A stretch of DNA of 64,000 nt from an uncultured Enterobacteriaceae bacterium (GCA_964447285.1 CAYURO010000018.1:20522-84521), one strand, 5' to 3'. Positions 25,567 through 57,684 are shown, counted from the stretch's first letter. Notes: generated from the sequence alone by a model not told the origin. Numbers and translations: made by a program.

Positions 25567-27726
25567 ATGACGCCTGCTTGCACGACCATGTTCCGCACAC
25601 TTCGACGGGTTGCGTTGGGCGTTCTTGCGCCGCTGCTGCTGCCGACACTTGCGTCTGCCGCAGTGCCGACCACCGTGCTGCTCGAGGGGACGCTGCAGGC
25701 GACGGGCGGCGGTCCGGCGGCGGACGGCAAGTATCTGCTGAATCTGGCGATCTATCCCGATGCGCTGGGTGGTCAGGCGGCGTGGAGCGAGCAGGGCGCT
25801 GAAGCGTCGGTTCAGGGCGGCTTGTTCAGTCTCGCCATGGGCGCAAAGGTCCCGCTGAAGCCCGAGCTGCTGGCGGCGCTGTCCAAAGCCTATCTGGGCG
25901 TGACCGTGCAGCCGGACCCCGAGCTACCGCGGGTGCCGGTACACGCCGTTCTGTACGCGTTGCGCGCTGGCGTGGCGACGGGGATCGACTGTTCCGGCTG
26001 CATCCAGACCGCGCATCTGGATCCGCAGGTGTTGGCCCCTTATGCCAAGTCGGCCGATCTGGCGGCCTATGCCAAGACCGCGTCGTTGGCCACGGTCGCG
26101 ACCTCGGGGGCCTTCGCTGACCTGTCGGGCGGCCCGGACCTGAGTGCCTATGCGAAGACGGCCTCGCTGGCGACGGTTGCGACATCCGGCACATACGCAG
26201 ACTTGGAGGGATTGCCGACCCTTGCCAAGCTGGGCATCGCCTGCGGGACCGGCTTGGTGGTGCGCGGACTGAAGGCAGACGGCAGCTACGACTGCGTGCA
26301 GGCGATGGACCCCTTGGCGCTGCCCAAGGATGCGCTCGACGAGGTCTCGAACGGCCTGTTGACCAACCAGTTCAACGAGGTCGCCGCCAGCACGAAACTC
26401 GTCCCCATCCCCGACAACAGCCCCGTCGGCATCAGTGACGTGATCGACGTGCCGGACTTCGGCACTGCCCAGACGTTCAGCGTAGCCGCCGAGATCGCCA
26501 ACAGCGACACCGGAAATCTGCGGATCACGCTCATCGACCCCACCGGCACCAAGTTCGTCCTGTGGGACAAGACGGCCAAGGGCACCATCGTCAAGACGAC
26601 GTGGCCCACCCCGACCAAGACGGTGTCCGGCGACTTGAGTACATGGATCGGCAAGAACCCTAAGGGAAAGTGGTACTTAGAGGTAATTGACGTCGCCTTC
26701 TTGAACAACGGCTTCGACGGTGCCCTGAAGGGGTGGAGCCTGAACATCGGCGTCATGTCGTCTGCCAAGGTCGGGTTGGCTGGTCTGCTGAAGCTGCAGA
26801 ACGCCGCCGAGGCCCCGCTTCCGTGCGGTCCGACACTGGCCGGTTCGCTGTACTTCGACACAGTGGCCAAGGCCGTGCGCTATTGCGACGGGGCGGCTTG
26901 GCGCAACTTGGCCGACACGTGCGGCAACGGCATTCTCGACGCCACCGAGCAGTGTGACGACGGCAACAACACCGATGGCGACGGCTGCTCGGCCACCTGC
27001 CAGACCGTGTGCGGCGACGGCAAGTTGCTGGGCAAGGAAGAGTGCGACGACGGCAACACCAAGGATGGCGACGGCTGCAGCGCGGCGTGCATCGCGTCGG
27101 TCGGTTTCTCGAAGGTGCGACCGGGCGCCTCGTGCGCTGCCATCCTCGCTGCGTGGACCAGTGCGGGCTGGACGGCCAAGGACGGCAAGTACTGGCTCGA
27201 CCCGAATCTGGGCGACCCAGCCGACGCGTTCCTGGCGACCTGCGACATGACGCAGAAGGGCGGTGGCTGGACCAAGGTCAGCGAGTTCGCCGAGACGTAC
27301 TACGACAACCTCAGCGACCGCAGCAAGATCCCGTACAAGGAAGTGCTGGTCCTCGAGTGGGACCACACCACCGCGACCCCCGTCTACTCGAACTTTGTGG
27401 TCCAGCACGCCTGCTACAACTCGGCCAAGACCGGCTTCCAGGTTGCCAACACATCGGCGAACTGCGACTCGGGCTATCAGGTCCGGGTCGGTGGCACGGG
27501 CGGTTCGTGCGGCGACGCCGAGGACGGCTGCTTTGGCTTGTACTACGGCGACTTGGCCGTTGGCGGCGGGTGCAACTGGAACTGCGGCGCGGGTGCCGTG
27601 AAGATCTGGGGCAAGGGCTACGCCTGCAATTCGTGCCGCTGCCGCAACGCGCCATACACGACAATCGAAGGCTGCGGCAACGGCGGTGCGTGGGGCAACA
27701 AGCGCTTCTGGATCTACGTGCGCTAA
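25567..27726 (+). CDS. Secreted multidomain protein: signal peptide - conserved N-terminal domain - ~24-aa tandem repeats - P-like (proprotein convertase P) domain - two Myxococcus Cys-rich repeats - fibrinogen-related domain
   Basis: Signal peptide LLLPTLASAA. Repeats DLAAYAKTASLATVATSGAFADLSGGPDLSAY. P-domain-like GKNPKGKWYLEVIDVAFLNNGFDGALKGWSLNI. CGNGILDATEQCDDGNNTDGDGCSATC occurs twice. CDMTQKGGGWT is a fibrinogen C-terminal-domain hallmark. Confidence 0.7.
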   Translation: MTPACTTMFRTLRRVALGVLAPLLLPTLASAAVPTTVLLEGTLQATGGGPAADGKYLLNLAIYPDALGGQAAWSEQGAEASVQGGLFSLAMGAKVPLKPELLAALSKAYLGVTVQPDPELPRVPVHAVLYALRAGVATGIDCSGCIQTAHLDPQVLAPYAKSADLAAYAKTASLATVATSGAFADLSGGPDLSAYAKTASLATVATSGTYADLEGLPTLAKLGIACGTGLVVRGLKADGSYDCVQAMDPLALPKDALDEVSNGLLTNQFNEVAASTKLVPIPDNSPVGISDVIDVPDFGTAQTFSVAAEIANSDTGNLRITLIDPTGTKFVLWDKTAKGTIVKTTWPTPTKTVSGDLSTWIGKNPKGKWYLEVIDVAFLNNGFDGALKGWSLNIGVMSSAKVGLAGLLKLQNAAEAPLPCGPTLAGSLYFDTVAKAVRYCDGAAWRNLADTCGNGILDATEQCDDGNNTDGDGCSATCQTVCGDGKLLGKEECDDGNTKDGDGCSAACIASVGFSKVRPGASCAAILAAWTSAGWTAKDGKYWLDPNLGDPADAFLATCDMTQKGGGWTKVSEFAETYYDNLSDRSKIPYKEVLVLEWDHTTATPVYSNFVVQHACYNSAKTGFQVANTSANCDSGYQVRVGGTGGSCGDAEDGCFGLYYGDLAVGGGCNWNCGAGAVKIWGKGYACNSCRCRNAPYTTIEGCGNGGAWGNKRFWIYVR

Positions 27727-31663: not shown

Positions 31664-34600
31664 TCAGTAGATGCCCTTGGCGTTCGCACCGCCGAAGCCG
31701 TATGCGTCTACGGCCTCGCGCAGGTAGAACGGCACTTCGGTATACTGTCCCAGCTTCATGCACGCCTTGTTGTGCACGCACTTGCACCCGCTGTTGTCCG
31801 TGGCAGAGCAGCCCGCGATGGGGCCACCGTTCACGTTCTCCATCGAGGGGTCGTACTTCACCAGGGCCTCGCCGGTCTTGTCGCTGTAGACGGGCTCGTA
31901 CCAGTCGGGAATGCCGTCACCGTCCTGGTCGGGGCCGGGCGTCGTCTGGTAAGCGTCTTTCAGCAGCGAGTTGGCGTATTCGAGCACGCGCGCGGCGATG
32001 CCCTTCTCGACCGTGCGGCCGAAGATGGTCTCGCGGCCGATGCGCCGGGCGACGTAGATCTTGCCGATCGGGTTATGGAACTCGATGCGCGCCTTGATGC
32101 CCGGGTCGGAGTCCTTGCCGAGCTCCCAGATGCGCATCATGTCCATCCAGCCCTGCTGCGCGTTCTCTGGCAGGTACAGCATCGTCCAGGCGATCAGGAA
32201 CTTCTGCTGCTCCCAGCCCACCTGCGGGTCGACCACGGCCGTCTTGACGGGGGCCACGGCACCAAAGGGCTTGTCGTCGGTCGAGCCATAGGTCGTGCAG
32301 ACGGTGCTGTTCTGCGCCGGGAAGCAACTGGTGGGCTGCATGCCGAACCACGTCGTCCAGCCAAAGCCCATCGTCGGGAACTTCTGGGTGTCGATCAGCG
32401 GCTTGCCGTTGGCGCCGGCGGCAAGGCGCGGGCCCTTCAGGAAGTCGTCGCCGGTCAGTTGGTTGGCAAGCAGGCGGCGGAAGCCGTCCGGGAAGAGGTC
32501 TGCCAGCGAGGCTGAGCGGTAGCGAGCGTCGACGAAGTCGCCGAGGGACGAGCTGATGAAGTTGTCGACCGATTCGGTCATCAGCATCGAGATGTACATC
32601 TTGTCGTAGTACGAACCCGCATTCAGCGTGTACTGCGAGTCGTACTCGCCCTTGTCGCTGGCCAGTTGGTTCTCGACCGGGCGACCGCCGTAGGTGACCT
32701 GACCGAAGTAGCCCGTTGCGCCATTCGGAACGACTACCGTGACGGTCGCCGGCGAGCTGCTCATCTTCGATTCCATCGACCTCAGCACGCCATTCGCGGC
32801 GTCGGCGAAGTGCTCGCCTGCCTCTGGACGCGCCAACTGCTTGGCGAAGTGGTCAAACACGATACCCGAGGCCAGCACGTTGTCGGGGAAGAACGACTTG
32901 GCGGCATAGGCCCACAGCTCGTCCGGATCCGCGCCCACTTCAAGCGCGACGTCCCGGTAGATATTGCGGTACAGGGCCAAGCCCTTGGCGCCGTCGCGCA
33001 GCTTCTCGTTGAAGCGGGTCAGCGCGCGGTTCGCGGCGCCGCGGACCGAGAAGCTCTTTCGGCCGCGACGGTAGTTGTCGAAGATGTGGCCTACTTCCTG
33101 CTGGGTGATCATGAACCCGAAGATCTCGTAGGGATCCGCACCGTTATCGTGGCGGTACACGCTCAGGTTGCCCAGGTCGGCCCAGTTGTCGGTCGCGAAG
33201 CCATAGGGCACACGCTGGCGCTTCTGGGGGTCCACAGCAACGCCACCGCGGTAACCGCCCGTCGGCAGTTCGTTCGTCGCCGGCGCGCGCAGGCTGGTCC
33301 AGGGCACGTAATCGACCTTCTGCTGGCGGCAGCGGGTGTATCTCTCGTCAATCTTGACGATCAGGCCGTCGAGCAGGGGCGAGAAGGAACCGTCGGTCGC
33401 CTCGTTCCAGCGCGCCGGCTTGAACTTCAGGGGGTCGACCTCTTGGCAGTCCTTGATCAACTCGAAGCCCGTGTTCAGCGCCGAGTAATGGATGTCTTTG
33501 GACCCAAGGCTGAAAGTCAGGCCGAGGATGCCACCGAAGTTGTCGGTCTTGCCCAGCATGGCCTTGCCGCGTGGTGTGCCGGCCTTGTAGGTGTCGTCGG
33601 CGTACACGGCCACCGAGTCGCCGTACAGCATGCGCGTCGCGGCAAAGTCGTACACGCCAAGACCCAGGAAGTCCTGAGTGGTCTCGCCGGCATAGTCCAT
33701 GATCGACGACTGCTGCCACATCCAGATCAGGTTGTCGCGCTCCTCCTTGGTCACCGGGTCGAAGTAGCGCGGGCCGACGCACGTCGAGCCGTCGGGAGCC
33801 AGCGCCTTGCAGTCGGTCTTGACCTTGCCGTTCTTGGTGCGGAGCTGCCAGTACTGCGGGCGGAAGCCGGTCGCGTCGGAGGAGCTGATGAAGTTGTGGC
33901 GCAGACCGATGCTGTGTCCCATTTCGTGCGCGATGACCGCGTAGTGGGCGCGGCGAGCGACGTAGTCGCGCATCTTCTCTGCGCGCGCCTGCTGAACTTC
34001 CGGCGGCTGGGTCGGGTCGAACTGGCCAAACTTCTCCTGCAGCACGTCTGCAAGGCCGGCGATGCTCAGCGGTGCCTCAGCCATCTGCATGATGCACATG
34101 CCCCGCTCGGCCAGGGCGGTCTCCTTCATGCGGCGCAACTCGCGCTGAACCGCCGGGTTGCCGCCACGCAGCGGCGAGGCGATGTCCAACACGGCCTGGC
34201 CCAGCGGCATCCCCACCATGCCGGCAAGCACCTGGACGGCGGGCGTGATCAGCGAGGCCTCGAACAGCGTTCCCATCGCCATCTGGCGGCGGGCGGCGTA
34301 GGTGGGCGCCATGGCCGAAGCGACCTTTGCGGAGGCGGTCACTTCCTTCAACTGATGCTTCAGGTCCACGGCGGCCTGAACCGCTTCGGGGTGCTGCTGC
34401 TCGAAGGCGGCGGCACGCTCGGCGTTCATGTCGATGCCTTCAGACTGGGCGGTGCGCGCGTTGAATTCTTCAGCCGTCAGGCGGGGAAGCAGGCCGTTGG
34501 CAGAGGCGGCACGGGCGGCCTCGGACCAGTCTTTGATGTACTTGCCCTCGGTGATGCTCTCGGCCTTCAGCTCGCCAGCGATATAGCGAGCCTGGTCGAC

Positions 34601-36559
34601 GACGCCCTGACTCCAGAGGTCGTTGACGTACGTCCACGCGTTGATGCTGGCGGCGATGGTCTCGCCAGTCAGCGGGTCGTTCGAGTCGACCATGATGCCC
34701 CAGGGCGACGGCGTCTGCGGTTCGGGAAGGCCATTGACCTGGTGGTAGCGCAGGTCGCCGCGGCGGACGTTCAGGGCCTTGGCGCACACCGCCAGCGTCT
34801 CGGTGTCGCCGTCGACGCGGGCCGTCTCGCACTTGTCCGCGGTCCAGCCGATCGGCAGGCGCTCGGCCGTCTTGGCGCACCCGATGGGGTCGCCCAGCTC
34901 GACGGGGCTGTGGCACAGGACGATCATCTCGGGCATCTTCGCGATCGCCTTGACGCCGTCGGTATAGCCGCGCTCTGTCCCCACCGTGTCGGCCAGGTTC
35001 TGGCACAGCAGCTCGTTGCGACCCAACTGCGCGTAAGCACGGCTGTTGCGGCAGTCGTCGACTTCCATCGCCAGCGCGACGGCATCACCGTTGTCGTCCT
35101 GCTGGCCGTCGTACACAGGGAACTGCGTATCGCACTTGGCGTACTCGGCAACCAGGTCCACCGCGGCCCCGCCGTCGGGAACAGTGGCGCTCGCTCTGGC
35201 TTGGGCAACGCGCTTGCACTCACCGAGCTGCGACGACCGGATGGCGACGCGCAGGGCGATGTCCCATTCGTGGGTGGCCTGCTCCGTGGCCTCGAAGTAC
35301 TTCAGGTTGCTGCCACCGGTGTAGTACCACGCGACCGGCTTGGCCAGGCGCTGGGTCAAGGGCAGGGTGCAGCGCTGCTTGAACGTGTCGCAACGAGATC
35401 CGTTGCCAACGGAAGCGCACTCGTCTTCGGTGCCGTCCTGGTTCAGGTCGCGGTGCGGGTCCTGGCCATACTTGGTGGTCTCGGGGGTATAGCAGGCGAC
35501 CGGACCGCCCTTGGGGTCCTGGAACGTCGTGGGCGTCGAGGTCGGCTTGCCGCTGGCGTCCAGCTTGTAGTACGCGTGGCTCTGCTCCCAGATGTTGTAA
35601 TAGTTCAAGAAGCGGTACCACTTGGCGTCGGTCATGCCGTAGTTGCGCGTGTATCCCGACCGCTCGGTGGTGAAGCCGCCAAACGCCTGAAAGCGAAAGC
35701 CGTCCCAGTCGCGGGGTTCGAAGTCGGTGACCACGACGCGGCGGAAGGCATGGCGGACGGTGAGCTCGATGGGGTTGCACGAGCCCGCGGGCGCGGTGCC
35801 GCCGGCAAAGTCGGCCTCGAGGAAGCAGGCAGGGAACGTGTCGATGCCCCAGCCCAGGTGGCTGAGATCGACGACGCCCGGCTTGGCGAACGCCTTGCTG
35901 GTGATGTCGAAGTAGCTGTTGTCTTTGGCGAAGTACGGGGCATTCGGGTCGTTCGGGTCCTGGACGTTGTACGCCATGGGCTCGTACTGCACGCCGCCGT
36001 AGATGCCGACCATCGACAGGGTGTCGAAGTCGTAGCTATCCACGTTCTGGTTCTTCGACCAGTCGATCCGCATGTGGGTGCGCTGGTACCAAGGGCGGTC
36101 GTAGTTGTTCTCCTCGAGGATGTTCATCTCCTCGCCCGTGGTGGAGTTGTACGACCGCTTGATGTCGAAGTGCGACTCGATGCGGAACGCGCAGACGATC
36201 ACGCCGTCCTGCGTCGCCTTGCCCAGGCCCTTGCCGTCCGAGCCCTCGATGCGCTCGTAGGCGAGGCGGCCGATCAGCAGCCCTTCGGTGATCTGCCACT
36301 TGATACGCGACACCGGCTGCGCATAGGTCGACGTGAACAGGCCGTCCTGCGACGCGCCGTAGCCGACGTCGATCAGGGTGGCCTGCGCCCAGAATTCCGG
36401 GTCGTCAGCGGTGCTGACCAGGTCCTTGCCGACGAACAGGGTCTTGTCGAGCGCCCAGGGCTGGACGCGGTCGATCGGGGCACGCTCCTCGGCACAACTG
36501 GCGGAAAAGGCCGAAAGGGCGAGCAGCAGGAACAGGGGGGCGCGAAGGGCGCGGAACAT
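31664..36559 (-). CDS. Giant secreted or lipo-anchored zinc metalloprotease-like protein (HEXXH zincin), about 1632 aa
   Basis: Signal peptide with lipobox FSASC. Zincin motif VIAHEMGHSIGLRHNF near residue 1000. The rest resembles no family I can name. Confidence 0.7.
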   Translation of the reverse strand: MFRALRAPLFLLLALSAFSASCAEERAPIDRVQPWALDKTLFVGKDLVSTADDPEFWAQATLIDVGYGASQDGLFTSTYAQPVSRIKWQITEGLLIGRLAYERIEGSDGKGLGKATQDGVIVCAFRIESHFDIKRSYNSTTGEEMNILEENNYDRPWYQRTHMRIDWSKNQNVDSYDFDTLSMVGIYGGVQYEPMAYNVQDPNDPNAPYFAKDNSYFDITSKAFAKPGVVDLSHLGWGIDTFPACFLEADFAGGTAPAGSCNPIELTVRHAFRRVVVTDFEPRDWDGFRFQAFGGFTTERSGYTRNYGMTDAKWYRFLNYYNIWEQSHAYYKLDASGKPTSTPTTFQDPKGGPVACYTPETTKYGQDPHRDLNQDGTEDECASVGNGSRCDTFKQRCTLPLTQRLAKPVAWYYTGGSNLKYFEATEQATHEWDIALRVAIRSSQLGECKRVAQARASATVPDGGAAVDLVAEYAKCDTQFPVYDGQQDDNGDAVALAMEVDDCRNSRAYAQLGRNELLCQNLADTVGTERGYTDGVKAIAKMPEMIVLCHSPVELGDPIGCAKTAERLPIGWTADKCETARVDGDTETLAVCAKALNVRRGDLRYHQVNGLPEPQTPSPWGIMVDSNDPLTGETIAASINAWTYVNDLWSQGVVDQARYIAGELKAESITEGKYIKDWSEAARAASANGLLPRLTAEEFNARTAQSEGIDMNAERAAAFEQQHPEAVQAAVDLKHQLKEVTASAKVASAMAPTYAARRQMAMGTLFEASLITPAVQVLAGMVGMPLGQAVLDIASPLRGGNPAVQRELRRMKETALAERGMCIMQMAEAPLSIAGLADVLQEKFGQFDPTQPPEVQQARAEKMRDYVARRAHYAVIAHEMGHSIGLRHNFISSSDATGFRPQYWQLRTKNGKVKTDCKALAPDGSTCVGPRYFDPVTKEERDNLIWMWQQSSIMDYAGETTQDFLGLGVYDFAATRMLYGDSVAVYADDTYKAGTPRGKAMLGKTDNFGGILGLTFSLGSKDIHYSALNTGFELIKDCQEVDPLKFKPARWNEATDGSFSPLLDGLIVKIDERYTRCRQQKVDYVPWTSLRAPATNELPTGGYRGGVAVDPQKRQRVPYGFATDNWADLGNLSVYRHDNGADPYEIFGFMITQQEVGHIFDNYRRGRKSFSVRGAANRALTRFNEKLRDGAKGLALYRNIYRDVALEVGADPDELWAYAAKSFFPDNVLASGIVFDHFAKQLARPEAGEHFADAANGVLRSMESKMSSSPATVTVVVPNGATGYFGQVTYGGRPVENQLASDKGEYDSQYTLNAGSYYDKMYISMLMTESVDNFISSSLGDFVDARYRSASLADLFPDGFRRLLANQLTGDDFLKGPRLAAGANGKPLIDTQKFPTMGFGWTTWFGMQPTSCFPAQNSTVCTTYGSTDDKPFGAVAPVKTAVVDPQVGWEQQKFLIAWTMLYLPENAQQGWMDMMRIWELGKDSDPGIKARIEFHNPIGKIYVARRIGRETIFGRTVEKGIAARVLEYANSLLKDAYQTTPGPDQDGDGIPDWYEPVYSDKTGEALVKYDPSMENVNGGPIAGCSATDNSGCKCVHNKACMKLGQYTEVPFYLREAVDAYGFGGANAKGIY

Positions 36560-36596
36560 CGAGGACCTCCCGGACGGGCGAGACGAAATGGCGGGG

Positions 36597-37637
36597 CTAG
36601 AAGAGCTCCGCGGGGGCGATCTGCAAATTGAGGTACAGATTCGTGAAACGATTGAAGAAAACCGATTGGTAGGTCGAATCTGGCGCGAGCTGGCTGTTGA
36701 CCGTCTGGGCGCCCAGCGACACATTCACCACATCCGTGATGTCCCACGACGCCTCGACCACGTAGACCATGGTCACGCGCTGCGACGGGTCGTTGGGGTC
36801 CGGCTCGACGGTGTAGGTCGTGCCTTTTGCGGTGCCGAGGGCGTAGAGCTGGTCGGCGTGCACTCCCGCGGTGCCGGTAACGGCCACGGACGATACGGGC
36901 GTCCACGTCGCGTTGGCCAAGCCGGTCCAGCGCCACTCGGGGTTGCGCAGGCCGGTGTGCGAGAACTGTGAGCAGCCGCTGGTCAAGTCGGCGCAACCCA
37001 CGACCCACGGCGAGTCGAGCTGGCCGGTCGTGTACTCGTGCGCCATGTAGGTGCCGCGGCCGGTCAACGACAGCTGCAGGCCCTGGCCGGCGAAGCGTGA
37101 GCTCCATGCGGCCGTGACGCCCAGCGACGGGGCAATGATGAGCGAGCGGGCTGCCGACGCCTTGCTGGTGGGCAGGTTCACGCCCAGGTCCGAGGACACC
37201 GACAGGCCGGTGGGGGTCACGGCGTCAGGCAACAAGATCGCATAGCGGGCGCCCAGTTGCGTGTCACCGACCATGGTCTCACCTTGGTAGGTGGTCCAGT
37301 CGCTCTGGGTCAACTCGCGCGAGAGGCTGCTGGATGCGTTGAAGCGCACGCGGCGGCTCAGGGTGTAGCGGACGGTGGCGCTCAGCGACATCTCGACGTT
37401 CGGATTCCAGGTCGGGTCCGCAGCCTTGTCCAGTCCGATCGCGAGGACGTCGGTTCGCAGGCTGACGTCGGAGCCGCGGAAGTTGGCCGCGATGCCGGGA
37501 TCGTCAACGGGCACCGCCACCGCCGTCACTGCATCCTCCGCCGCCGCCGAGGCGGGCCGAGCAAGCATTCCGATGAGGAGGAGCAGGAGGGGCAAGCTCA
37601 GGCAGGGAGAGCAGAGCGGACGAAGAGACCGTGGCAT
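36597..37637 (-). CDS. Outer-membrane beta-barrel protein, likely co-transcribed with the downstream zincin gene
   Basis: Signal peptide LLLLLIGMLARPASAAA. Alternating amphipathic strands. C-terminal ...IAPAELF with terminal Phe is a classic OMP signature. 37 bp upstream of the zincin start. Confidence 0.6.
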   Translation of the reverse strand: MPRSLRPLCSPCLSLPLLLLLIGMLARPASAAAEDAVTAVAVPVDDPGIAANFRGSDVSLRTDVLAIGLDKAADPTWNPNVEMSLSATVRYTLSRRVRFNASSSLSRELTQSDWTTYQGETMVGDTQLGARYAILLPDAVTPTGLSVSSDLGVNLPTSKASAARSLIIAPSLGVTAAWSSRFAGQGLQLSLTGRGTYMAHEYTTGQLDSPWVVGCADLTSGCSQFSHTGLRNPEWRWTGLANATWTPVSSVAVTGTAGVHADQLYALGTAKGTTYTVEPDPNDPSQRVTMVYVVEASWDITDVVNVSLGAQTVNSQLAPDSTYQSVFFNRFTNLYLNLQIAPAELF

Positions 37638-48509: not shown

Positions 48510-48824
48510 TCTCTCCGGCTACCGACGCAGCGCCGCCGACCGCGTGAGCCGACCATGACTCACGCGGCCTGCGGTGTGCCTCGCCTGCACTGGTCTTCTC
48601 CGATTCGGCCTTTCATCGGCCGATCGACTGACCGTCGCCAAGCCGCGGAAACACGCGCGGGTCACGGCATCCAAACCGCCGGCAGGACTGTCGCAAAGCC
48701 TTCTGGTTCGCTATACTTCGCGCCCACTTCCGCGCCCACGTGCGGAGCTTGAGTCGTCGCAACGCACCTACGCGGCCACGGCGACTGGACACCCTCAACT
48801 CTTGTGTTTCATCGAGGCTCTGCC

Positions 48825-50885
48825 ATGAGGACGACCGCAACCCGCTTCTCCGTTCCCTGCGCGCTCGCGCTTGCCTGTCTTTGGTTTGCGGTTCCGGCCG
48901 CAGCCCTCGTGCCCACCACGGTTGGGGTAGAGGGGCTACTGCTGTCGTCCGGTGGTGGTCCGGCGGCAGATGGCGACTATGCGGTGACCTTCGCCATCTA
49001 CAAGGACGTCAGCGGCGGAGCCGCCGTGTGGTCGGAAGGCCCAGTGACGCTGACCGTGAAGAGCGGGCAGTTCGTCCACGCGTTGGGCAGCAAGACGGCG
49101 CTGACCCAGCAGGTCCTTGCCACCGCCGGCGCTCAGTCGTTCTTGGGGGTGCGGGTGGGCATCGACCCCGAGTTCGCTCGCAAGCCGCTGAATTCAGTGA
49201 CCACAGCGCTGCGGGCGGCTGTGGCTGAGAACATCGACTGCTCCGGCTGCATTGGCTTGGGGCAGCTGGATGCCACCGCATTGGTCGATTACGCCAAGGT
49301 TGCCGACCTCTCCAAGGTGGCGACCACGGGCAAGTTCTCTGACCTGCAGGGGGGGCCGGACCTGTCCGCGTACGTCAAGATGGTTTCGCTTGCGACCGTC
49401 GCGCTGTCGGGGGCGTATGCCGACCTGTCCGGCATCCCCGACCTGTCGGTCTATGCGAAGTCCGCAGCCCTGCACAAGGTCGCTACGACGGGCAAGTATG
49501 CAGATCTGGTGGATGCGCCGGTGCTGGCGGCGGTGGCGAAGTCGGGCTCGTACAAGGACCTGATCGACCAGCCGACGCTGCCCAAGCTGGGCGACAAGTG
49601 CGGCACCGGCCTTGTGATGCGCGGCATTCTGGCGAACGGCGCCTACGACTGCGTGGTTGCGCTCGACCCGGCGGCTCTGCCCGGCGACGGCCTGAACGAG
49701 ATCTCCAATGGCCTGATCACCAATGAGTTCGCAGACTCAGCCAGCGGCGGCACGGGTGTGAAGATCCCCGACAACAGCCCGGTCGGTGTGTCCGACATCA
49801 TCGACTTTCCCGACGTGGGCTTGGCCAAGAAGCTGACGATCAACATCGACATCACCAATTCCAAGATCAACACCGTGACCGTGTACCTCTACGACCCGGC
49901 GAATCAGGAGTACGTCCTGCACCAGAAGTCGAGTTCAGGCACCAGTCTGAAGACCGGTTACCCAACCCCGACCAGCACGGCGTCGGGCGACCTGAGCACT
50001 TGGCTTGGCAAGAATCCCAAGGGCAAGTGGTTCCTGAAGGTTGTGGACAACGACTTCCTCAACAACACGACAGACGGTCAGATCAACGCCTGGTCGATTT
50101 CGATCGAGACGCTGTCCAGCAAGAAGGTTCAGGTCAAGGGCGACCTGCTGGTGGACGGTGGCATCAAGGTCGGCGCCGACGCGACGGCGTGCACGGCCGC
50201 GAAGGCTGGCACGCAGCGATACGCCAACGACCGGATCGAGTACTGCAACGGATTGGTTTGGCTACCGGTCGGCGCTTCCGGGGCGACGTACCGCTGGGCC
50301 GTTTGGTCCAGCTACGACCAGAGTTGCTGCTGGTTCGGCGCTGGCGGTAACGGCAACGCGGCGCTGTTCGGCGGCGTGACTCCGCAGGCTTGGGGTGATG
50401 GCAGCGGTTTTGCGGGTCAGATGAGTGCCGACAAGGAAGTGCTGCGGACCCTGTTTACGAACAAGGGCTACGCCCAGAAGAACGCGACGGTGTGGGCCGA
50501 GTCCTGGTACACCTACAGCTCAACCAACTCCAAGCACGCGGGAGCGTTGTTCCGCATCCGCAATACCACGGGCTCCGCCATCACTTGGACGCCCTACGCG
50601 TACATGACGTCCTACGCGGGCTGGGGCAACTACGCGAGCGTGGCTCTAAACGGTACCAGCATTTGGAACAGCGGCGGCAACAACTACTACTCGAATTCGA
50701 CCTTCAGTTGGAACCTGTCGATCCCAGCGAACCGCGTCAGCACGGCGATCTTCATCTCAGCCAACACGGCACCGTCCGGCACGGCGACCACGTTCCTCGC
50801 GTTCTACAACAACAGCTTGGCGCTTCCGGCCGGTTTGGTGTTCGTGGACGATATGGACTTCGCGACAGGTGGCTGGGAGCAGTAG
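48825..50885 (+). CDS. Secreted paralog of the 25567..27726 protein: same N-terminal domain, ~24-aa repeats and P-like domain, but a different C-terminal domain (Trp/Tyr/Asn/Ser-rich, lectin-like)
   Basis: Signal peptide ALALACLWFAVPAAA. About 45-50% identity to the paralog over the first ~420 aa (VPTTV..GGGPAADG..; GKNPKGKWFLKVVDNDFLNNTTDGQINAWSISI). C-terminal domain has no Myxo Cys repeats or FReD. Confidence 0.7.
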   Translation: MRTTATRFSVPCALALACLWFAVPAAALVPTTVGVEGLLLSSGGGPAADGDYAVTFAIYKDVSGGAAVWSEGPVTLTVKSGQFVHALGSKTALTQQVLATAGAQSFLGVRVGIDPEFARKPLNSVTTALRAAVAENIDCSGCIGLGQLDATALVDYAKVADLSKVATTGKFSDLQGGPDLSAYVKMVSLATVALSGAYADLSGIPDLSVYAKSAALHKVATTGKYADLVDAPVLAAVAKSGSYKDLIDQPTLPKLGDKCGTGLVMRGILANGAYDCVVALDPAALPGDGLNEISNGLITNEFADSASGGTGVKIPDNSPVGVSDIIDFPDVGLAKKLTINIDITNSKINTVTVYLYDPANQEYVLHQKSSSGTSLKTGYPTPTSTASGDLSTWLGKNPKGKWFLKVVDNDFLNNTTDGQINAWSISIETLSSKKVQVKGDLLVDGGIKVGADATACTAAKAGTQRYANDRIEYCNGLVWLPVGASGATYRWAVWSSYDQSCCWFGAGGNGNAALFGGVTPQAWGDGSGFAGQMSADKEVLRTLFTNKGYAQKNATVWAESWYTYSSTNSKHAGALFRIRNTTGSAITWTPYAYMTSYAGWGNYASVALNGTSIWNSGGNNYYSNSTFSWNLSIPANRVSTAIFISANTAPSGTATTFLAFYNNSLALPAGLVFVDDMDFATGGWEQ

Positions 50886-50937
50886 TCTCCGGGCCGATGT
50901 ACCTCCGCAGCCGTCCGCGGAGGGCAGCAGCAGGCGA

Positions 50938-52101
50938 ATGACCGAACGCCATCACATCTACCTGATCCCCGGCTTCTTCGGGTTCACCAATCTGGGTGAC
51001 CTTCGCTATTTCGCCCACGTGAACGACGTGCTGCGGGACGAGTTCGCGCGCCGCGACTTGGACGTGGTCGTGCACCCGGTGCGGACGTGGCCCACGGCTT
51101 CCGTCCGCCGCCGGGCGCAGCGGTTGCTACAGGTCATCGCGGAGACAAGCGGGGATACGGACGAGCCGGTGCACCTGATCGGCCATTCGTCGGGAGGTCT
51201 GGACGCGCGGTTGCTGGTCTCTGCTGGCGCGTCGCTGTCCGAAGACCCGTCGGCGGAGCGCATTGCCGCCCGGGTTCGCTCTATCGTCACAGTGGCCGCA
51301 CCGCATTTCGGCACGCCGCTGGTGTCGGTATTCACCCGCCGGTTGGGTGGCCGGCTGCTGCAAGTGCTTTCGCTGTCTACGATTTACGTCCTGCGTTATG
51401 GCCGCCTGCCGCTGTCGGTCGCGGTGCGGCTGGGCGGCCTTCTGGTCAAGCTGGAAGACCGGATGGGCACCGGACAGGACGTGCTTGACCAACTGTACGG
51501 CGAGCTGCTGGACGACTTCTCGGACGAGCGCCGCGTGGCCTTGGACGAATTCCTGACCGATGTGGGCAGCGACCAGCAGCTGATTCCGCAGCTGACGCCT
51601 GAAAACATGGCGACTTTCAACGCGACGACGCGCGACGACGGTGGGGTTCGCTACGGCTGCGTGCTGGCCCGCGGACGGCCGCCGGGGCTCGCCTCGACGT
51701 TGGCCGCGGGCCTTGGGGTGTACGCGCAGGCCAGTCACGCCTTGTACGCAACGATCTATCGAGGGGCGTCACGCACGCCGCATGACCGCACGGTGATGCC
51801 GTCCTACGAGCAAGTTCAGGCGATGCGGGCGGCTTGGGGCGAGGTTCCGGACCCGCGCGACAACGACGGCATCGTGCCCACGCTGTCGCAGCTGTGGGGC
51901 GAGGTGATCTGCGCCGTCACGGCGGACCATCACGACCTGATCGGCCACTTCGACGATACCGAGCACGACCCGCCGCACTACGACTGGATCACCAGTGGCT
52001 CGGGGTTCAAGCGGCGGGAGTTCGAGGCGTTGTGGGCTTCGGTGGCGCACTGGATTGCAGTTCGAGGCATTCCGTCGGCGGGAAAGGGCGCGCCCAGATA
52101 G
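50938..52101 (+). CDS. Alpha/beta-hydrolase, putative secreted-type lipase/esterase
   Basis: Nucleophile elbow HLIGHSSGG (GHSxG). HIYLIPGFFGF oxyanion region. Downstream Asp and His (DNDGIV; DHHDLIGHF). Confidence 0.6.
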   Translation: MTERHHIYLIPGFFGFTNLGDLRYFAHVNDVLRDEFARRDLDVVVHPVRTWPTASVRRRAQRLLQVIAETSGDTDEPVHLIGHSSGGLDARLLVSAGASLSEDPSAERIAARVRSIVTVAAPHFGTPLVSVFTRRLGGRLLQVLSLSTIYVLRYGRLPLSVAVRLGGLLVKLEDRMGTGQDVLDQLYGELLDDFSDERRVALDEFLTDVGSDQQLIPQLTPENMATFNATTRDDGGVRYGCVLARGRPPGLASTLAAGLGVYAQASHALYATIYRGASRTPHDRTVMPSYEQVQAMRAAWGEVPDPRDNDGIVPTLSQLWGEVICAVTADHHDLIGHFDDTEHDPPHYDWITSGSGFKRREFEALWASVAHWIAVRGIPSAGKGAPR

Positions 52102-52277
52102 CTGCTTCATCGACCCGGCGCACGCTGTTCTCCAGCGATGGCGACAGGTTGGGCGTCGAGTTGTTGCAGGCCGACTGCTCAGGACTCAGGCGCGCTGGTT
52201 GCGATGCGCAGGCATCTCCGATACCTTCATATTCACTATTCAGGCGTTTCGAAGGCGGGTCGTGCGCCGTGGAGCGG

Positions 52278-55010
52278 ATGCGGATGAAGCGTGGTCCCCT
52301 CGTCGCAATTCTGGCCGTCTCATTGGTGTTCGCAGGCTGCCGTGCCGAATTCCTGCCCGCTTCGGCCGCACCTGGCGAGGACGTCGATTCGCTGGACGCT
52401 GCAGACACTGCCGTCCCCGACGGGGCGGTAGAAACGACGCCCGACATTGTGGCGGACCTCGCGGTGGATACCTCTGCCGACGACGTGGCGGACGTTGGTG
52501 TTGATCAGGACACAGCCGCAGAGACCCTTGCCGACGCGGAGTTGGACGTTGCCGTCGACGCTGTCACCGACGCGGCTGTGGACGACGCGACGCCCGACGA
52601 TGTTGTCGTCAACGTCGACGTCGATGCCTCGGAGGTGCTGGATACGGTCGAGCCCTGCACCAACCAGACCTGCGACGACGGCCAGCCATGCACAGCGGAC
52701 AGTTGCAAGGACGGCGTGTGCTCGCATCTGGCCCTCGCGGGGGCCTTCTGCAACGACGGCGACGCCTGCACGGTCGGGGACAAGTGCGTGCAGGGCCTGT
52801 GCAAGGCGACCGGGCCGGCCAACTGCGACGACGGCCAACCGTGCACCATCGACACGTGCGACAAGGTCGCCGGCTGCCAGAAGAAGGCAGCGGTCGACGG
52901 CATCGCGTGCGAAGACGGCAGTGCGTGCACGGCTGGCGACGCCTGCGCGATCGGCAAGTGTGTGGCGGGCAAGCCGGTGGCGTGCGACGACGGCAACGTG
53001 TGCACCGACGACGGCTGCGACGCGGTGCAAGGGTGCGTCCATCCAGCGGTTTCGGCAGACATGGGCTGCGACGACGGCGACGCTTGTACCGAAGGCGATG
53101 TTTGCGGGGGAGCCACCTGCAAGGCTGGCAAGCCGCTGATCTGCGACGACGGCAAGCCTTGCACGACCGACAAATGCGTGGCAGCGACGGGATGCGCGAA
53201 TGCCAACACGGAGATCGAGACCGTGTGCAACGACGGCAACGACTGCACGGTCGGCGACATGTGCGACGGACAGGGTAAGTGCGGCGGCCTGGGCAAAGAC
53301 TGCAACGACGATAACCCTTGCACCATAGATACTTGCGCCAATAGCGTCTGCGCCCACGGCCCGTCCGCCGTCGGCGACCCCTGCAGCGACGACAACCCCT
53401 GCACCTTGGGCGACGCCTGCAAGGACTCAGCATGCGTGGCGGGGACCCCCAAGGTTTGCGACGACAAGAACGCGTGCACGGCAGACGCGTGCGTGGCCGG
53501 GACGTGCAAGTACCAGCCGAAGGCCAGCGGTGCCTGCGACGACGGCGACGGCTGCACGGTCGACGATGCCTGCGACGCGGGCGTATGCGTGGGCGGCGCC
53601 GCCAAGACCTGCGACGACAACAACACCTGCACCAAGAACACTTGCGCTGAGGGCAGTTGCAGCTTCCCCGCGCTGAGCGGACTCAGCTGCGACGACGGCG
53701 ACGGCTGCACGCTGGGCGACACCTGCCAGGTGGGTCAGTGCAAGGCCGGCACCGCCAAGGACTGCGGCGATAGCCATCCGTGCACCGACGACAGTTGCGC
53801 CGGTGGCGTCTGCGCCAACCTGGCGAACGCGGCCCCGTGCAACGACGGAGAGGCCTGTACGGTGTCGGACCAGTGCAGCAACAAGTCGTGCCAGGCCAAG
53901 AAGTTGGCCACCGTCACCCATGCCCAGGTGAAGGCCTGCGGTTACGTCGGGGCCGTCTCTTTCCGCCAGCGCGGGATGACGGTGGTTCCCGGTGGCTACG
54001 CCGTCGCGGGCGACGCGAGCTGTGGCGGTTCCAGCGGCAACGACAGCACGGGCTCGATGCTTCTGCGCCTGGGTCCCGACGGCGTCGCGCTGGGTCCCGC
54101 GACGTCGTTCTACCCGTCCACGTCGAATCTGGTGCTGGGCGTGGTCTGGGACGGCAAGTCGATTCTGGTTCCGTTGTACCAGGACCAGACCGGACTGCGG
54201 CGCCTCGTGGTGGTCCGTTTTGGACTCGATGGCGTCCTGAAGGGCGAGCTGCTGCTGCCGACCGCGGGCGTCGTCTATCCGGCCGACGCCAGGGCAATTG
54301 CGGGCGGCGTCGCGGTGCTGATCGGCGGCAAGGTGCCGTCCAGCGACTCTGTCACCGACACGTCGACCACCCTGTTCGTCGTCGCCAACGACACTTTGGT
54401 CGCGGCCTTGCCGACGTCGTCCGGTGCGGCGCAGTACTCGGGCCTGGTGCTGCCCGTCTCGGGGGCCTACATCGTGTTGTACGGCGCGGGAACCATGGCG
54501 CGTCACGCTGTTTCTGCAGACGGCAGCAAGATCGTGTCCACCGTGACTACGTCGTCGCCGCAGCCGAATTCGTTCCCGGGTGCTCCCGTCACTGCGCTGG
54601 GCCTGACAGGGGACCCGAACATCGCCGTCGTCGCCGGCTACCAGCCGCCCGGCGGACCGTCGGTGGGACCTGCTTGGGCGTCACTGTTCTACACCTCGAA
54701 TCTGCAGTACATCGCCCGGGTTCCGCTGGTCGACGCGGGCGGCAAGACGGCGGTCGTTGCGCCAATGGCGATCGTGCCGCTGACGACGACAGAGTTTCTG
54801 GTGGCCGGCATCAAGACGAACAGCGGGACGACGTACGCGGTCCGCATGAACACGGCGGGTCAGGTGTTGTCGACCATCGACACGCTGCCGCAAGAGGCCA
54901 CGACCTGGCTGTACGACGCGGCCTCGGGCGTGTTGACGCTGGGACTGGTGCATCAGAACACGCAGCTGTCCTTTGCCAAGACCCAACCGGTGCCGGCGGT
55001 CTGCAAATAG
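52278..55010 (+). CDS. Large lipoprotein with about 20 tandem Cys-rich modules (C-DDG-x-CT-x-D-x-C) and a C-terminal beta-rich, propeller-like region
   Basis: Lipobox VFAGC. Acidic linker. Regular 36-40-aa Cys modules from about residue 100 to 560. C-terminal 350 aa are Gly/Val/Ala-rich with repeated strand-like segments. Confidence 0.65.
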   Translation: MRMKRGPLVAILAVSLVFAGCRAEFLPASAAPGEDVDSLDAADTAVPDGAVETTPDIVADLAVDTSADDVADVGVDQDTAAETLADAELDVAVDAVTDAAVDDATPDDVVVNVDVDASEVLDTVEPCTNQTCDDGQPCTADSCKDGVCSHLALAGAFCNDGDACTVGDKCVQGLCKATGPANCDDGQPCTIDTCDKVAGCQKKAAVDGIACEDGSACTAGDACAIGKCVAGKPVACDDGNVCTDDGCDAVQGCVHPAVSADMGCDDGDACTEGDVCGGATCKAGKPLICDDGKPCTTDKCVAATGCANANTEIETVCNDGNDCTVGDMCDGQGKCGGLGKDCNDDNPCTIDTCANSVCAHGPSAVGDPCSDDNPCTLGDACKDSACVAGTPKVCDDKNACTADACVAGTCKYQPKASGACDDGDGCTVDDACDAGVCVGGAAKTCDDNNTCTKNTCAEGSCSFPALSGLSCDDGDGCTLGDTCQVGQCKAGTAKDCGDSHPCTDDSCAGGVCANLANAAPCNDGEACTVSDQCSNKSCQAKKLATVTHAQVKACGYVGAVSFRQRGMTVVPGGYAVAGDASCGGSSGNDSTGSMLLRLGPDGVALGPATSFYPSTSNLVLGVVWDGKSILVPLYQDQTGLRRLVVVRFGLDGVLKGELLLPTAGVVYPADARAIAGGVAVLIGGKVPSSDSVTDTSTTLFVVANDTLVAALPTSSGAAQYSGLVLPVSGAYIVLYGAGTMARHAVSADGSKIVSTVTTSSPQPNSFPGAPVTALGLTGDPNIAVVAGYQPPGGPSVGPAWASLFYTSNLQYIARVPLVDAGGKTAVVAPMAIVPLTTTEFLVAGIKTNSGTTYAVRMNTAGQVLSTIDTLPQEATTWLYDAASGVLTLGLVHQNTQLSFAKTQPVPAVCK
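52578..53960 (+). repeat. Protein-level tandem array of Cys-rich modules (about 114-nt period at the DNA level, degenerate)
   Basis: Repeated gcgacgacggc...tgcac units. Encodes CxDGxxCTxDxCxxGxC iterated. Confidence 0.7.
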
Positions 55011-55102
55011 GTCGCGGACGGGCAGGGTTGAACGCAGGGGCAGCACGGCGCAGGGTCGCGCGATTTCGGTTGTCGGGTGTCGTCGGGGGGAGAGGAGCAG
55101 GA

Positions 55103-56113
55103 ATGGTCGACCGGCGAGTCATGCAGCTGATCCAGAGGACCGACCGAGGTCGTGCGGTGGTCCATTGTCTGGCGCTGGGCCTTGCCTTGCAGGTTGCCGC
55201 GGTATCTCTGACCGGCGTTGCGGTTTCGACTGCTGTTGCGGCCCCTGCAGACACCTCTGCGACGCTGGCTGCGGAGGGTGCGGCGCTGTTCAAGCGGAGC
55301 GAATACCTGGATGCTGCACGCACCTTCGATAGGGCCATCGCCTTGGACGGCAAGGACTTTCGCCTGCTGCGCTATGCCGGTCGCGCTTGGCAAGAGGTCG
55401 GGCACTGGCCCAAGGCGCTGGACCTGCTGGAGCGCTATGACCGTCAGGAGCCCGAGGTGGCGTTGCGGGCGACGCTGCTGCCGAACCTTGACAAGCTGCG
55501 CAAGGCGACGCCGCTGGAGCGCGCCGAAGCGTTGGAGGCGGCTTGCCAGCGCTATCCGCAAGCTGGTCTGGAGGCGGACGCGGGCAAGGCGTTCGAGGTG
55601 CTGAACGACGCCGCGGGCCACCGCAAGGCGCTGGCGTTCGCCGAGACGGCGCGTCGGGCGGCCACGGACCCGAGTCAAGTCGCGGAGTTGGACGCGTGGA
55701 TCGCCCGACTGCGAACCCGACAAGCTGAGTTCGACCGAAAAGCTGCAGTTCAGACGACCGCGTCGCCAGTGCCGGTGGTTCGCACGGCCGACGGACCCAC
55801 GGGCGCACAGTGGGCGGCTTGGGCCGGCGGCGCGACGCTGGCGGTCGGGGGCGCGGTGCTGTGGGTGATAGGCACGAGCGCGACGCAGTCGGCCAACGAC
55901 GACCTGACCGAAGGGCGTTCGACCTATGCCGAGTACAAAAACGCGCGTGATGGTGCAGATGTACAGTATTTCACCGGCATCGGGCTGGTCGGTGCAGGCG
56001 CCGTTGCCGCCGCCGTCGGTTGGTTCTTGGCCCCTGACGCGACCGACGCCACCCAGTCTCGCCTGTTTGTGACACCCGCTCCCGCCGGAATCGGTTTGGC
56101 GATGCGCTTTTGA
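55103..56113 (+). CDS. Hypothetical signal-peptide protein with a TPR-like helical region and two C-terminal transmembrane helices, immediately upstream of a Ser/Thr kinase
   Basis: AGGAG Shine-Dalgarno. Signal peptide. Helical repeats (FKRSEYLDAARTFDRAIALDGKDFRLLRYAGRAWQEVGHWPKALDLLERY). Transmembrane segments AAWAGGATLAVGGAVLWVIG and YFTGIGLVGAGAVAAAVGWFLAP. Its stop overlaps the region of the next start. Confidence 0.45.
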   Translation: MVDRRVMQLIQRTDRGRAVVHCLALGLALQVAAVSLTGVAVSTAVAAPADTSATLAAEGAALFKRSEYLDAARTFDRAIALDGKDFRLLRYAGRAWQEVGHWPKALDLLERYDRQEPEVALRATLLPNLDKLRKATPLERAEALEAACQRYPQAGLEADAGKAFEVLNDAAGHRKALAFAETARRAATDPSQVAELDAWIARLRTRQAEFDRKAAVQTTASPVPVVRTADGPTGAQWAAWAGGATLAVGGAVLWVIGTSATQSANDDLTEGRSTYAEYKNARDGADVQYFTGIGLVGAGAVAAAVGWFLAPDATDATQSRLFVTPAPAGIGLAMRF

Positions 56114-56130
56114 CCCCCAGTGAGTCCTGC

Positions 56131-57684
56131 ATGCCGCGCATTTGTCCGACCTGCCAGTTCACTACCGAGGCGCTTCAGTGCCCCGCGGACGGAACGGACA
56201 CCACGCCCCTCGATTCCCCAGCGGGCGGAGGTCTCGTCGGCAAGACCCTCGGCGGCCGCTACCGCGTCACGCGCCTGATCGGCGAGGGCGGTTTTGGTGC
56301 CGTGTATCAGGCCGAGCACTCGGGCACCGGCGACGTGGTGGCCATCAAGGTGCTGCATCCGGAGCAGGCGGACAGCGGCGAGACCACCTCCCGTTTTCAG
56401 CATGAGGCCGCGGTCACTGCGCGCCTGAAGCAGCCCCACACCGTGCGGGTGTTCGACTTTGGCCAGATGGACTCAGGCGCGCTGTACCTGGCGATGGAGT
56501 TTCTGGACGGCCGCACCCTGACCAAGGTCATCGACACAGAGAGTCCGCTGGGGTACGAGCGCATCGGCAGCATCGCGCTGCAGGTGCTGAAGTCGCTGGC
56601 AGAGGCTCACGCGCAAGGGTTGGTGCACCGCGACCTGAAGCCGGACAACATCTTCCTGCAAAACGTCCATGGCGAAGACGACTTTGCCAAGGTGCTGGAC
56701 TTCGGCATCGCCAAGTCGCTGGCGCGGGGCAGCGAGTCGCGGACGGCGGCGGGCGTGATCGTCGGTACCCCGCAGTTCATGAGTCCGGAGCAAGCGCGCG
56801 GAACACCGGTGGACGCGCGAACCGACCTGTACGCACTGGGTTGCATCCTGTTCCATGCGCTGACGGGCAAGTTGGCTTTCGCTTCAGAGAGCGCGATCGA
56901 CACCTTGGTGCAGCGCCTGACCCAGCCTCCGCCCGACGTGCGCGGCCAGTGCCTGACCCCGACGCCCGATGCGATATGCGAGGTGGTCCGCAAGGCGATG
57001 GCCACAGAAGCGAACGACCGCTACGCCTCGGCGCAAGAGATGGCCAAGGCGTTGACGGAGGCGATGAAGAAGTCCAACGCGCCGGGGCCGCAAACGTCAC
57101 GGGTGGCACCGGGGCCTCTTCGTCCGGCCCGTCCGCAGCCGGCCTCGCCTCGCCCGGCGCCGCAGCCTGCAGCGCAACGCCCGGCGACCCGGCCGGTGGC
57201 CGCCGCGCCACAAGTGCCCGAAGAGCGGACCGTCGCCATCGACCTCCTCGCCGCGCCCGCGCCAGCGCCCGCCCGGTTGGCCGTCGCTAAGCCCAAGTCG
57301 GCCGCGGCGTCCGACGCGAACGCGCCGGTGGCGTTGTCCAAGGTTGGATCGTCGAAGTGGATGTGGATAGGCATCGGGGCCGTGCTGGTGGCTGCTGCCG
57401 CGGCGGGAGGCTATGCCGCGCTGCGTCCGGCGCCCGTATCGCCAGACCCGTTGCCGGTCGCATCGTCGGTCCCGGTCGCGCAACCCGTCGCCGATCCGGC
57501 CCCGGCTCCGCCGGCCGAGCCCGTTGCTGCCCCTGCACCCGCCGCGCCAACCCCAGCACTGGTCCAGCCGGCCGCTGTCCCTGCCGCGCCGTCTCAGCCC
57601 GCCGCGGCGCCTGCCAAGGCCAAACCGGTGCGCAAGGCAGCCAAGCCCAAGTCGGCAGCCGCGCCCGAGATTCTGGTGGAGTAG
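56131..57684 (+). CDS. Eukaryotic-like Ser/Thr protein kinase, paralog of the kinase at 6429..8306
   Basis: Zinc ribbon MPRICPTCQ...QCPADG. Hanks motifs GEGGFGAVY, VAIK, HRDLKPDNIF, DFGIA and SPE. Pro/Ala-rich linker. Transmembrane segment WMWIGIGAVLVAAAAAGG. Ala/Pro-rich tail. Confidence 0.85.
   Translation: MPRICPTCQFTTEALQCPADGTDTTPLDSPAGGGLVGKTLGGRYRVTRLIGEGGFGAVYQAEHSGTGDVVAIKVLHPEQADSGETTSRFQHEAAVTARLKQPHTVRVFDFGQMDSGALYLAMEFLDGRTLTKVIDTESPLGYERIGSIALQVLKSLAEAHAQGLVHRDLKPDNIFLQNVHGEDDFAKVLDFGIAKSLARGSESRTAAGVIVGTPQFMSPEQARGTPVDARTDLYALGCILFHALTGKLAFASESAIDTLVQRLTQPPPDVRGQCLTPTPDAICEVVRKAMATEANDRYASAQEMAKALTEAMKKSNAPGPQTSRVAPGPLRPARPQPASPRPAPQPAAQRPATRPVAAAPQVPEERTVAIDLLAAPAPAPARLAVAKPKSAAASDANAPVALSKVGSSKWMWIGIGAVLVAAAAAGGYAALRPAPVSPDPLPVASSVPVAQPVADPAPAPPAEPVAAPAPAAPTPALVQPAAVPAAPSQPAAAPAKAKPVRKAAKPKSAAAPEILVE

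Follow-up and report, generated by a model that had tools for sequence, protein, structure and literature searches.

Myxobacteria encode around a hundred Ser/Thr kinases each, many of them without a recognisable sensor domain, and the inputs of most are unknown. In the RcsF-IgaA and NlpE-CpxA systems, a Cys-containing lipoprotein is the extracytoplasmic input to an inner-membrane signalling protein. Tetratricopeptide repeat (TPR) proteins bind C-terminal peptides, as Hop and CHIP do with the EEVD ends of Hsp70 and Hsp90, and PEX5 with PTS1. In M. xanthus, the TPR protein MkapB is kinase-associated. In the H1 type VI secretion system (T6SS) of Pseudomonas aeruginosa, the outer-membrane lipoprotein TagQ and the periplasmic protein TagR relay envelope signals to the membrane Hanks-type kinase PpkA (PMC7817224). 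Here, we analyse a run of five genes (g1 to g5, Table 1) in 64,000 nt of DNA from an uncultured Enterobacteriaceae bacterium (GCA_964447285.1, CAYURO010000018.1:20522-84521), the whole of which is called the window below. The main subjects are the last two genes, encoding a TPR membrane protein (g4) and a membrane Ser/Thr kinase (g5), and the Cys-rich repeat lipoprotein encoded before them (g3). With a probability of roughly 60%, by our estimate, g4 and g5 constitute a signalling unit of two genes that is conserved in uncultured Myxococcota and frequently has a Cys-rich lipoprotein as its third component.

Results

The genome nearest to the window is a metagenome-assembled genome (MAG) of an "uncultured Myxococcales bacterium" (L009), which has the same gene order at 85-98% protein identity, and several lake metagenome contigs, for example from JGI 3300045131, encode a kinase identical to g5. 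A word-seeded search of 5.8 billion proteins returned only 6 homologues of g4, and an exhaustive profile search of 1.84 billion representatives returned 31 g4-family clusters at E <1e-30; the members that carry a source name are all "hypothetical" or "TPR repeat protein" and come from MAGs. None of Pfam, NCBIfam and PADLOC names the family, and it has so far been found only in freshwater and groundwater MAGs, which points to a lineage-specific signalling invention. Scanning the g4 alignment against one genome per species gave 25 loci, 24 of them distinct, in 18 freshwater or groundwater Myxococcota genomes, and nine window proteins were compared with these g4-anchored loci by tblastn, together with gene calls made for this analysis. 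A g5-type kinase directly adjoins the g4 relative at 19 of the 24 distinct loci (gaps of -4 to 339 nt), and these kinases are 52-72% identical to g5 over the N-terminal motif and kinase domain. Six more distant g4 relatives (E 1e-11 to 1e-20) repeat the pattern, five of them adjoining a kinase, three by overlap and one across a gap of 19 nt. An earlier note on this DNA, made from the sequence alone, had read the five genes as an envelope module feeding the kinase and had proposed gene-neighbourhood conservation as the check. Run on the g4-anchored loci, that check bears out the partnership of g4 with the kinase and, less firmly, that of g3 by way of its Cys-rich counterparts, but not that of g1 and g2, which accompany the pair in L009 only.

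The TPR gene precedes the kinase gene in the window and in L007-L014, and follows it in L018-L023, L027-L031 and L033. Both orders are present together in three MAGs, and the pair therefore appears to have been duplicated long ago as a unit. The identity matrices of the TPR proteins and the kinases are correlated (Mantel r = 0.77, p ≤ 2e-4), a sign of co-divergence. Scanning metagenomes with the g4 alignment added eight loci, mostly duplicates, with one new short contig in kinase-then-TPR order. The genes next to kinase-then-TPR pairs, read by eye from translations with no family scan, are housekeeping-like (ribosome recycling factor, frr; UMP kinase, pyrH; CcmE), and Pfam identifies CtaA near some of the distant pairs.

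The kinase itself is a typical Hanks-type enzyme over residues 44-298 (Pfam Pkinase, PF00069, E 2e-47, 162 bits against a cut-off of 31.7). The motifs VAIK (70-73), HRDLKP (166-171) and SPE (218-220) are in place and VLDFGIAK is visible in the translation, so that g5 is catalytically intact as far as its sequence tells. A Pro/Ala-rich linker leads from the kinase domain to a single predicted transmembrane (TM) helix (410-431), beyond which lies an extracytoplasmic, low-complexity tail of 86 aa, rich in Pro, Ala and Lys and ending in EILVE. By this predicted layout, the g5 of this lineage does not itself contain a folded sensor domain. Its best NCBIfam match, the PknB/Stk1 PASTA kinase model NF033483, stays below the cut-off (290 bits against 450), and Pfam finds no PASTA domain. 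Residues 5-21 carry a CxxC...CxxDG motif (CPTC...CPADG), that is, three Cys and an Asp, which no Pfam zinc-ribbon model matches; the description of g5 as a zinc-ribbon Ser/Thr kinase thus holds for the kinase but not for the zinc ribbon. The kinases of the kinase-then-TPR loci carry a PEGA-like outer domain.

The end of the tail is conserved. Among the 17 complete kinases with a TPR partner, 16 have [ILV]L[VIM][DEK] as their C-terminus and the 17th has a near variant, ALMID, and the motif is found in none of the 271 other proteins from the loci and the window (288 examined in all). The endings seen in paired kinases include EILVE, VLVE, LLID, LMID and LLIK, at the close of low-complexity outer tails of 86-192 aa in which a Lys/Pro-rich stretch precedes the motif. 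In the distant subfamily, all four kinases terminate in GDxxL instead.

On the partner side, g4 has a signal peptide with cleavage near AVA/AP (residue 46), followed by a TPR domain that an AlphaFold2 model places at about residues 50-218, with pLDDT >90 throughout. Pfam models stay below their gathering cut-offs (TPR_9, 24.4 against 35; TPR_19, 19.2 against 25), and it is the fold together with the family profile, which matches consensus TPR proteins at E 9e-17, that identifies g4 as a TPR protein; Foldseek returns generic TPR folds only, including consensus TPR, MamA, PilF, BamD and PcrH. Two Gly/Ala-rich hydrophobic helices (236-257 and 289-309) come after the TPR domain, and the protein ends in a short beta-hairpin of low confidence in the model. 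The motif LRYAGRAW, residues 89-96, is invariant in 19 of 19 TPR partners of both gene orders, at an overall identity of only ~33%. Helix-A positions 5, 6 and 9 of a TPR line the concave ligand-binding face and are usually variable. Alignment to consensus TPR puts R90, Y91 and R94 at exactly these positions, on the concave, ligand-facing side, and A92, G93, A95 and W96 at structural positions. The distant subfamily has LRNAGRA[WF]EEAG in place of LRYAGRAW, so that putative groove and tail co-vary by subfamily: LL[IV][DE] goes with LRYAGRAW, and GDxxL with LRNAGRA[WF].

Every one of the 21 called g4-family members has a C-terminal Phe, which follows an alternating hydrophobic pattern (window 56087-56110). 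Despite the helical nature of the protein, C-termini such as GIGLAMRF, GLSLALKF and GLALAGSF recall a PDZ ligand or the C-terminal signal of outer-membrane beta-barrels.

The third gene encodes a predicted lipoprotein, in which the lipobox MRMKRGPLVAILAVSLVFAG-C21 (LVFAG-C21) fits the bacterial consensus [LVI][ASTVI][GAS]C. An acidic Asp/Ala/Val tether of ~100 aa (residues 22-125) leads into a Cys-rich region (127-540) of 16 four-Cys units, C-x5-C-x4/5-C-x4/5-C, arranged as eight double repeats of ~53 aa, where the earlier note had counted 20; the DNA shows no tandem repeats. The protein belongs to Pfam Dicty_CTDC (PF00526; 48.1 bits against a cut-off of 27), has no other Pfam match and no NCBIfam match at E ≤ 0.01, and does not carry the TIGR02232/DUF4215 Myxococcus repeat. 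Literature on Cys repeats offered passing mentions only. The C-terminal domain of ~370 aa is predicted to be all-beta, and a single-sequence AlphaFold2 model of it is unusable (pLDDT 39). Sequence searches of the PDB with this domain and with g1 gave nothing meaningful, and a homologue search with the domain came back empty without recovering g3 itself, low-complexity words having probably swamped candidate selection.

Proteins with at least 4% Cys, here termed Cys-rich, are enriched beside the pair: they occupy 11 of 38 pair-flanking positions, compared with 8 of the 137 remaining positions at these loci, an odds ratio of 6.6 with a Fisher p of 3e-4 that overstates the support, because orthologous loci are not independent and Cys-rich genes are common in these genomes. 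The association takes at least six arrangements. The window has the Cys-rich gene upstream of the pair, L007 and the L019-L023/L028 group have it downstream, and L018/L020 have one on each side; in L015 it is convergent with the pair and in L053 divergent from it. All five distant kinase-linked pairs are flanked by Cys-rich lipoproteins too, of unrelated families. At a kinase-then-TPR locus, one lipoprotein has Dicty_CTDC repeats and, at its C-terminus, an FGE-sulfatase domain, which is often fused to bacterial Ser/Thr kinases as an outer domain. Because the association recurs in so many arrangements, and because of the FGE-sulfatase head, g3 is probably a third member of the g4-g5 module, one with a variable head.

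Further Cys-rich proteins were seen along the way. Some kinase-then-TPR loci, L021 (14717-19183) and L028 (14865-18209) among them, encode a second giant Cys-rich protein after the first, ~1100-1500 aa long and with 83-121 Cys; its repeat is a different one, FC.GK.NG.WCDG..L..C, and a segment of the L021 protein looks M23 peptidase-like by eye. Lipoproteins of ~330-356 aa with 22-23 Cys, ending in CC.E.K..F and without a Pfam match, are encoded on the minus strand in L049 (6865-7920), L051 (6841-7842) and L052 (6898-7968), adjoining distant kinase-TPR pairs that are also near a CtaA/COX15 gene. In the window, ~10800-12351 (plus strand) encodes another Cys-rich lipoprotein, with 52 Cys in the open reading frame (ORF) and a C-terminal domain free of repeats; its match to the g3 repeats is weak (33% identity), and it lies ~2.5 kb from a second kinase gene at 6429, with three unrelated genes between.

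Table 1 Genes, motifs and spacer features of the locus, in window coordinates.
Feature	Position	Strand	Description
Hairpin	48540..48567	+	3' of the M20 peptidase gene; folding z-score -4.25
Conserved block upstream of g1	48685..48730	+	contains TATACT; ~95% identical to L009 (whole spacer 65%)
g1	48825-50885	+	686 aa, secreted P-domain protein
g2	50938-52101	+	387 aa, alpha/beta hydrolase, putatively of a lipase/esterase family
Conserved block, g2-g3 spacer	52197..52246	+	50 nt, TTGCGA ... CACTATTCA; ~92% identical to L009
g3	52278-55010	+	910 aa, Cys-rich repeat lipoprotein
g3-g4 spacer	55011..55102	+	G-rich, GGG/GGGG runs, strong GGAGAGGAG ribosome-binding site before g4
g4	55103-56113	+	336 aa, TPR membrane protein
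LRYAGRAW motif of g4	55367..55390	+	second TPR
g5	56131-57684	+	517 aa, membrane Hanks-type Ser/Thr kinase
g5 C-terminal tail motif	57667..57681	+	EILVE-COOH; conserved among TPR-linked kinases

ORFs alone are unreliable for calling genes in the window because of its 67% G+C. The calls draw on third-position GC, translations and independent JGI gene calls for a metagenome contig encoding the identical kinase, and all give the same five consecutive plus-strand genes. The intergenic gaps are 52, 176, 92 and 17 nt in order, so that the earlier report of five plus-strand genes with short gaps stands, and its 18 nt between the last two is essentially right. That the five share a strand is true but not specific to them, since the plus-strand run begins further 5' of g1, with genes for ornithine carbamoyltransferase and an M20 peptidase, and extends to an M23 peptidase gene in convergent orientation. 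The label "cell-surface cluster" fails for g2, which has no signal peptide.

The spacers have suggestive features that would fit a g3-g4-g5 transcript, perhaps apart from g1-g2. The hairpin upstream of g1 is perfect, and in L009 compensatory C-to-T and G-to-A changes preserve its stem; it is probably a terminator separating the upstream gene from g1, and likely of a type outside the consensus scan because it has no T-run. The block upstream of g1 is a candidate promoter for that gene, and the block before g3 a candidate promoter or regulatory site for g3-g4-g5; the rest of the g2-g3 spacer has an indel and more mismatches against L009 (whole spacer 79% identical). Over the 92 nt between g3 and g4 there are 7 mismatches to L009; the identity of 92% modestly exceeds the 82-85% of third codon or synonymous positions, and this spacer has no terminator-like or stable fold (folding z-score +0.78). 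None of the spacers inside the cluster folds better than shuffled sequence, a consensus scan for promoters and terminators between g1 and g5 found nothing, with terminator-like sites fewer than in shuffles, and Rfam recognises no RNA family in the region.

The first two genes are of a different standing. A signal peptide and a P-domain (residues 336-426; P_proprotein, E 9e-10, 38.9 bits) are found in g1, and the Pfam scan detects no peptidase S8 domain, so that g1 does not qualify as a proprotein convertase of the kexin/furin type. A paralogue 45% identical over residues 26-479 is encoded in the window at ~25560-27726 (plus strand), followed by a gene that looks by eye like hemF, for coproporphyrinogen oxidase; the C-terminal part of the paralogue differs from that of g1, with Cys repeats of the CGNG..CDDGN type, which by eye are the Myxococcus Cys-rich repeat, and an end domain that is also rich in Cys. 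The product of g2 is an alpha/beta hydrolase with a GHSSG elbow; its Pfam matches are below cut-off (DUF7379, 28 against 33; PGAP1, 22.4 against 24.3) and that to lactonizing lipase in the PDB is weak (E 0.003-0.007). Homologues of g2, of which there are more than 1700, are named triacylglycerol lipase by their sources, and they include proteins 51-54% identical in cultured Myxococcus and Corallococcus and in Hyalangium; their neighbours differ from those here. With both genes absent from 23 of the 24 g4-anchored loci, g1 and g2 are, judged by gene neighbourhood, unrelated strand-sharing neighbours and not members of the module. In L034, a gene for a 1760-aa Dicty_CTDC protein (2488-7770, minus strand) is divergently adjacent to a g2 orthologue of 69% identity, and in L036 the g2 orthologue lies ~6.6 kb from a g1 homologue. 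Neither locus has g4 or g5 relatives, and these arrangements are remnants of local synteny.

The second kinase (6429-8306, minus strand, 625 aa) has the same layout as g5, from CxxC...CxxDG motif through kinase domain, Pro/Ala linker and TM helix to tail. With g5 it shares 41% identity; it lacks the tail motif, ending in GMRR instead, and has no TPR neighbour, and no g4-like sequence was found elsewhere in the window. The suggestion that it marks a duplicated module was accordingly dropped in favour of a kinase paralogue. On either side of it are lipoprotein genes, at ~5.27-6.4 kb (convergent) and ~8.56-9.25 kb (divergent). A very large minus-strand gene of ~1687 aa with high third-position GC is located at 31664-36724 of the window.

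Discussion

Because g4 and g5 adjoin one another across many loci, with Cys-rich proteins enriched at their flanks, it is reasonable to read g3-g4-g5 as a Ser/Thr kinase with an input that faces the envelope. A mechanism can be sketched, in which g3 would comprise a variable head carried on a disulphide-rich stalk and a tether, the head acting as the extracytoplasmic receptor that receives the signal. The TPR protein would be the adaptor between lipoprotein and kinase, its concave groove (R90, Y91, R94) clamping the conserved C-terminal peptide of the kinase tail, and ligand-dependent changes would pass through the packed Gly/Ala-rich membrane helices of g4 and g5 to the cytoplasmic kinase domain. 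The whole would amount to a trans-assembled "receptor kinase", in which exchangeable disulphide-rich lipoprotein receptors, with heads that vary between FGE-sulfatase-like and all-beta domains, dock on an inner-membrane TPR adaptor while the kinase tail is held in a carboxylate-clamp-like groove. This scheme is tentative, and we consider it possible rather than likely.

Several observations count against it or against the wider claim of a conserved unit. Five g4-family loci have no adjacent kinase, and two kinases have a C-terminal Lys (GLLIK), which weakens a strict two-carboxylate clamp. Genes like g3 are common in these genomes, with three Cys-repeat proteins in the 64-kb window alone, and the close TPR-then-kinase loci L010, L013 and L014 are without an adjacent Cys-rich gene. 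The topology of g4 is also uncertain, the charges flanking its two helices giving no clear positive-inside pattern on inspection of the sequence.

Pairing and co-divergence would suit any obligate partnership, including one in which g4 serves the kinase as substrate, scaffold or localisation factor, phosphorylated for instance on its inter-helix loop, and the Cys-rich lipoprotein is incidental. The loop has a conserved Tyr and some Ser/Thr, and several close loci lack a Cys-rich neighbour; however, the strongest conservation falls on the periplasmic TPR groove and the extracytoplasmic kinase tail rather than on the loop, and Cys-rich lipoproteins recur in distant lineages, and we regard this account as unlikely. 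It is improbable that g4 is instead an assembly or export chaperone for a disulphide-rich lipoprotein, with the kinase regulating or reporting on the process as a sentinel in the manner of NlpE-Cpx and RcsF-IgaA. Such a role would leave the conserved kinase tail unexplained, and the lipoprotein families change across lineages while the TPR groove stays invariant, even though TPR proteins commonly chaperone envelope proteins (PilF, BamD and PcrH are among the Foldseek matches) and the partner lipoproteins reach ~10% Cys.

The reading of all five genes as one envelope sensing or remodelling operon, with the P-domain protein and the lipase upstream of g3, g4 and g5, is largely refuted by the neighbourhood analysis, and we give it little credence. 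In its favour, all five genes point the same way, the gaps are short and free of terminator-like sites, and a g2 orthologue does stand beside a giant Dicty_CTDC protein in L034 and near a g1 homologue in L036. The order is also kept in L009, a genome that is uninformative on this point because it is too close (~90% identical). Set against this are the absence of g1 and g2 from nearly all g4-anchored loci, the lack of a signal peptide in g2 and its membership in a widespread family whose neighbours vary, the g1 paralogue that adjoins a gene read by eye as hemF, and the promoter-like conserved block that precedes g3. A PD-T4-6-like anti-phage defence kinase is a very remote prospect: the match of PADLOC models to g5 (E 1e-88) is in essence one to the generic kinase domain, g1-g4 have no PADLOC match, the pairs adjoin housekeeping genes (frr and pyrH by eye, CtaA by Pfam) and no defence-island neighbours, and g5 sits in the membrane and has a conserved partner in the envelope. 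A defence system was therefore rejected on genomic context despite the PADLOC matches.

If true, a trans-assembled receptor kinase of this kind would be a previously undescribed coupling of bacterial Hanks-type kinases to outside signals, and a co-evolving TPR partner with a variable-head lipoprotein would explain how "sensor-less" kinases such as g5 take their input from the envelope or surface. The proposed binding of tail to TPR groove is a specific peptide interaction that is testable at the bench; as a hypothesis generator, it is of moderate practical value.

Among known systems, PknB/Stk1 PASTA kinases share with g5 the kinase fold and the layout of kinase, juxtamembrane linker, one TM helix and outer region, but in g5 the outer region is a low-complexity tail without PASTA domains. 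RcsF-IgaA and NlpE-CpxA resemble the proposal for g3 in using a Cys-containing lipoprotein as input, whereas they feed histidine-kinase phosphorelays through small lipoproteins of 4-6 Cys and have no homology to g3, g4 or g5. The likeness to Hop/CHIP and PEX5 lies in the invariant basic and aromatic residues at concave helix-A positions of g4 and in the conserved acidic/hydrophobic C-terminal peptide of g5; the setting here is periplasmic and bacterial, the motif is LL[IV][DE] or GDxxL, there are about four TPR-like repeats, and the interaction is proposed only. The closest analogue in logic is TagQRST-PpkA, which likewise links a lipoprotein, a periplasmic adaptor and a transmembrane Ser/Thr kinase. 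It has no sequence relation to g3-g4-g5, and the Pfam annotations of the window genes and related loci include no T6SS, FHA, PP2C, TagST-like ABC, TagR or TagQ component, which places the locus outside that system. In the present locus, the counterpart of the adaptor has TPR repeats and two membrane helices, that of the lipoprotein is a giant protein of Cys repeats, and the kinase carries a conserved C-terminal tail in place of a folded periplasmic domain.

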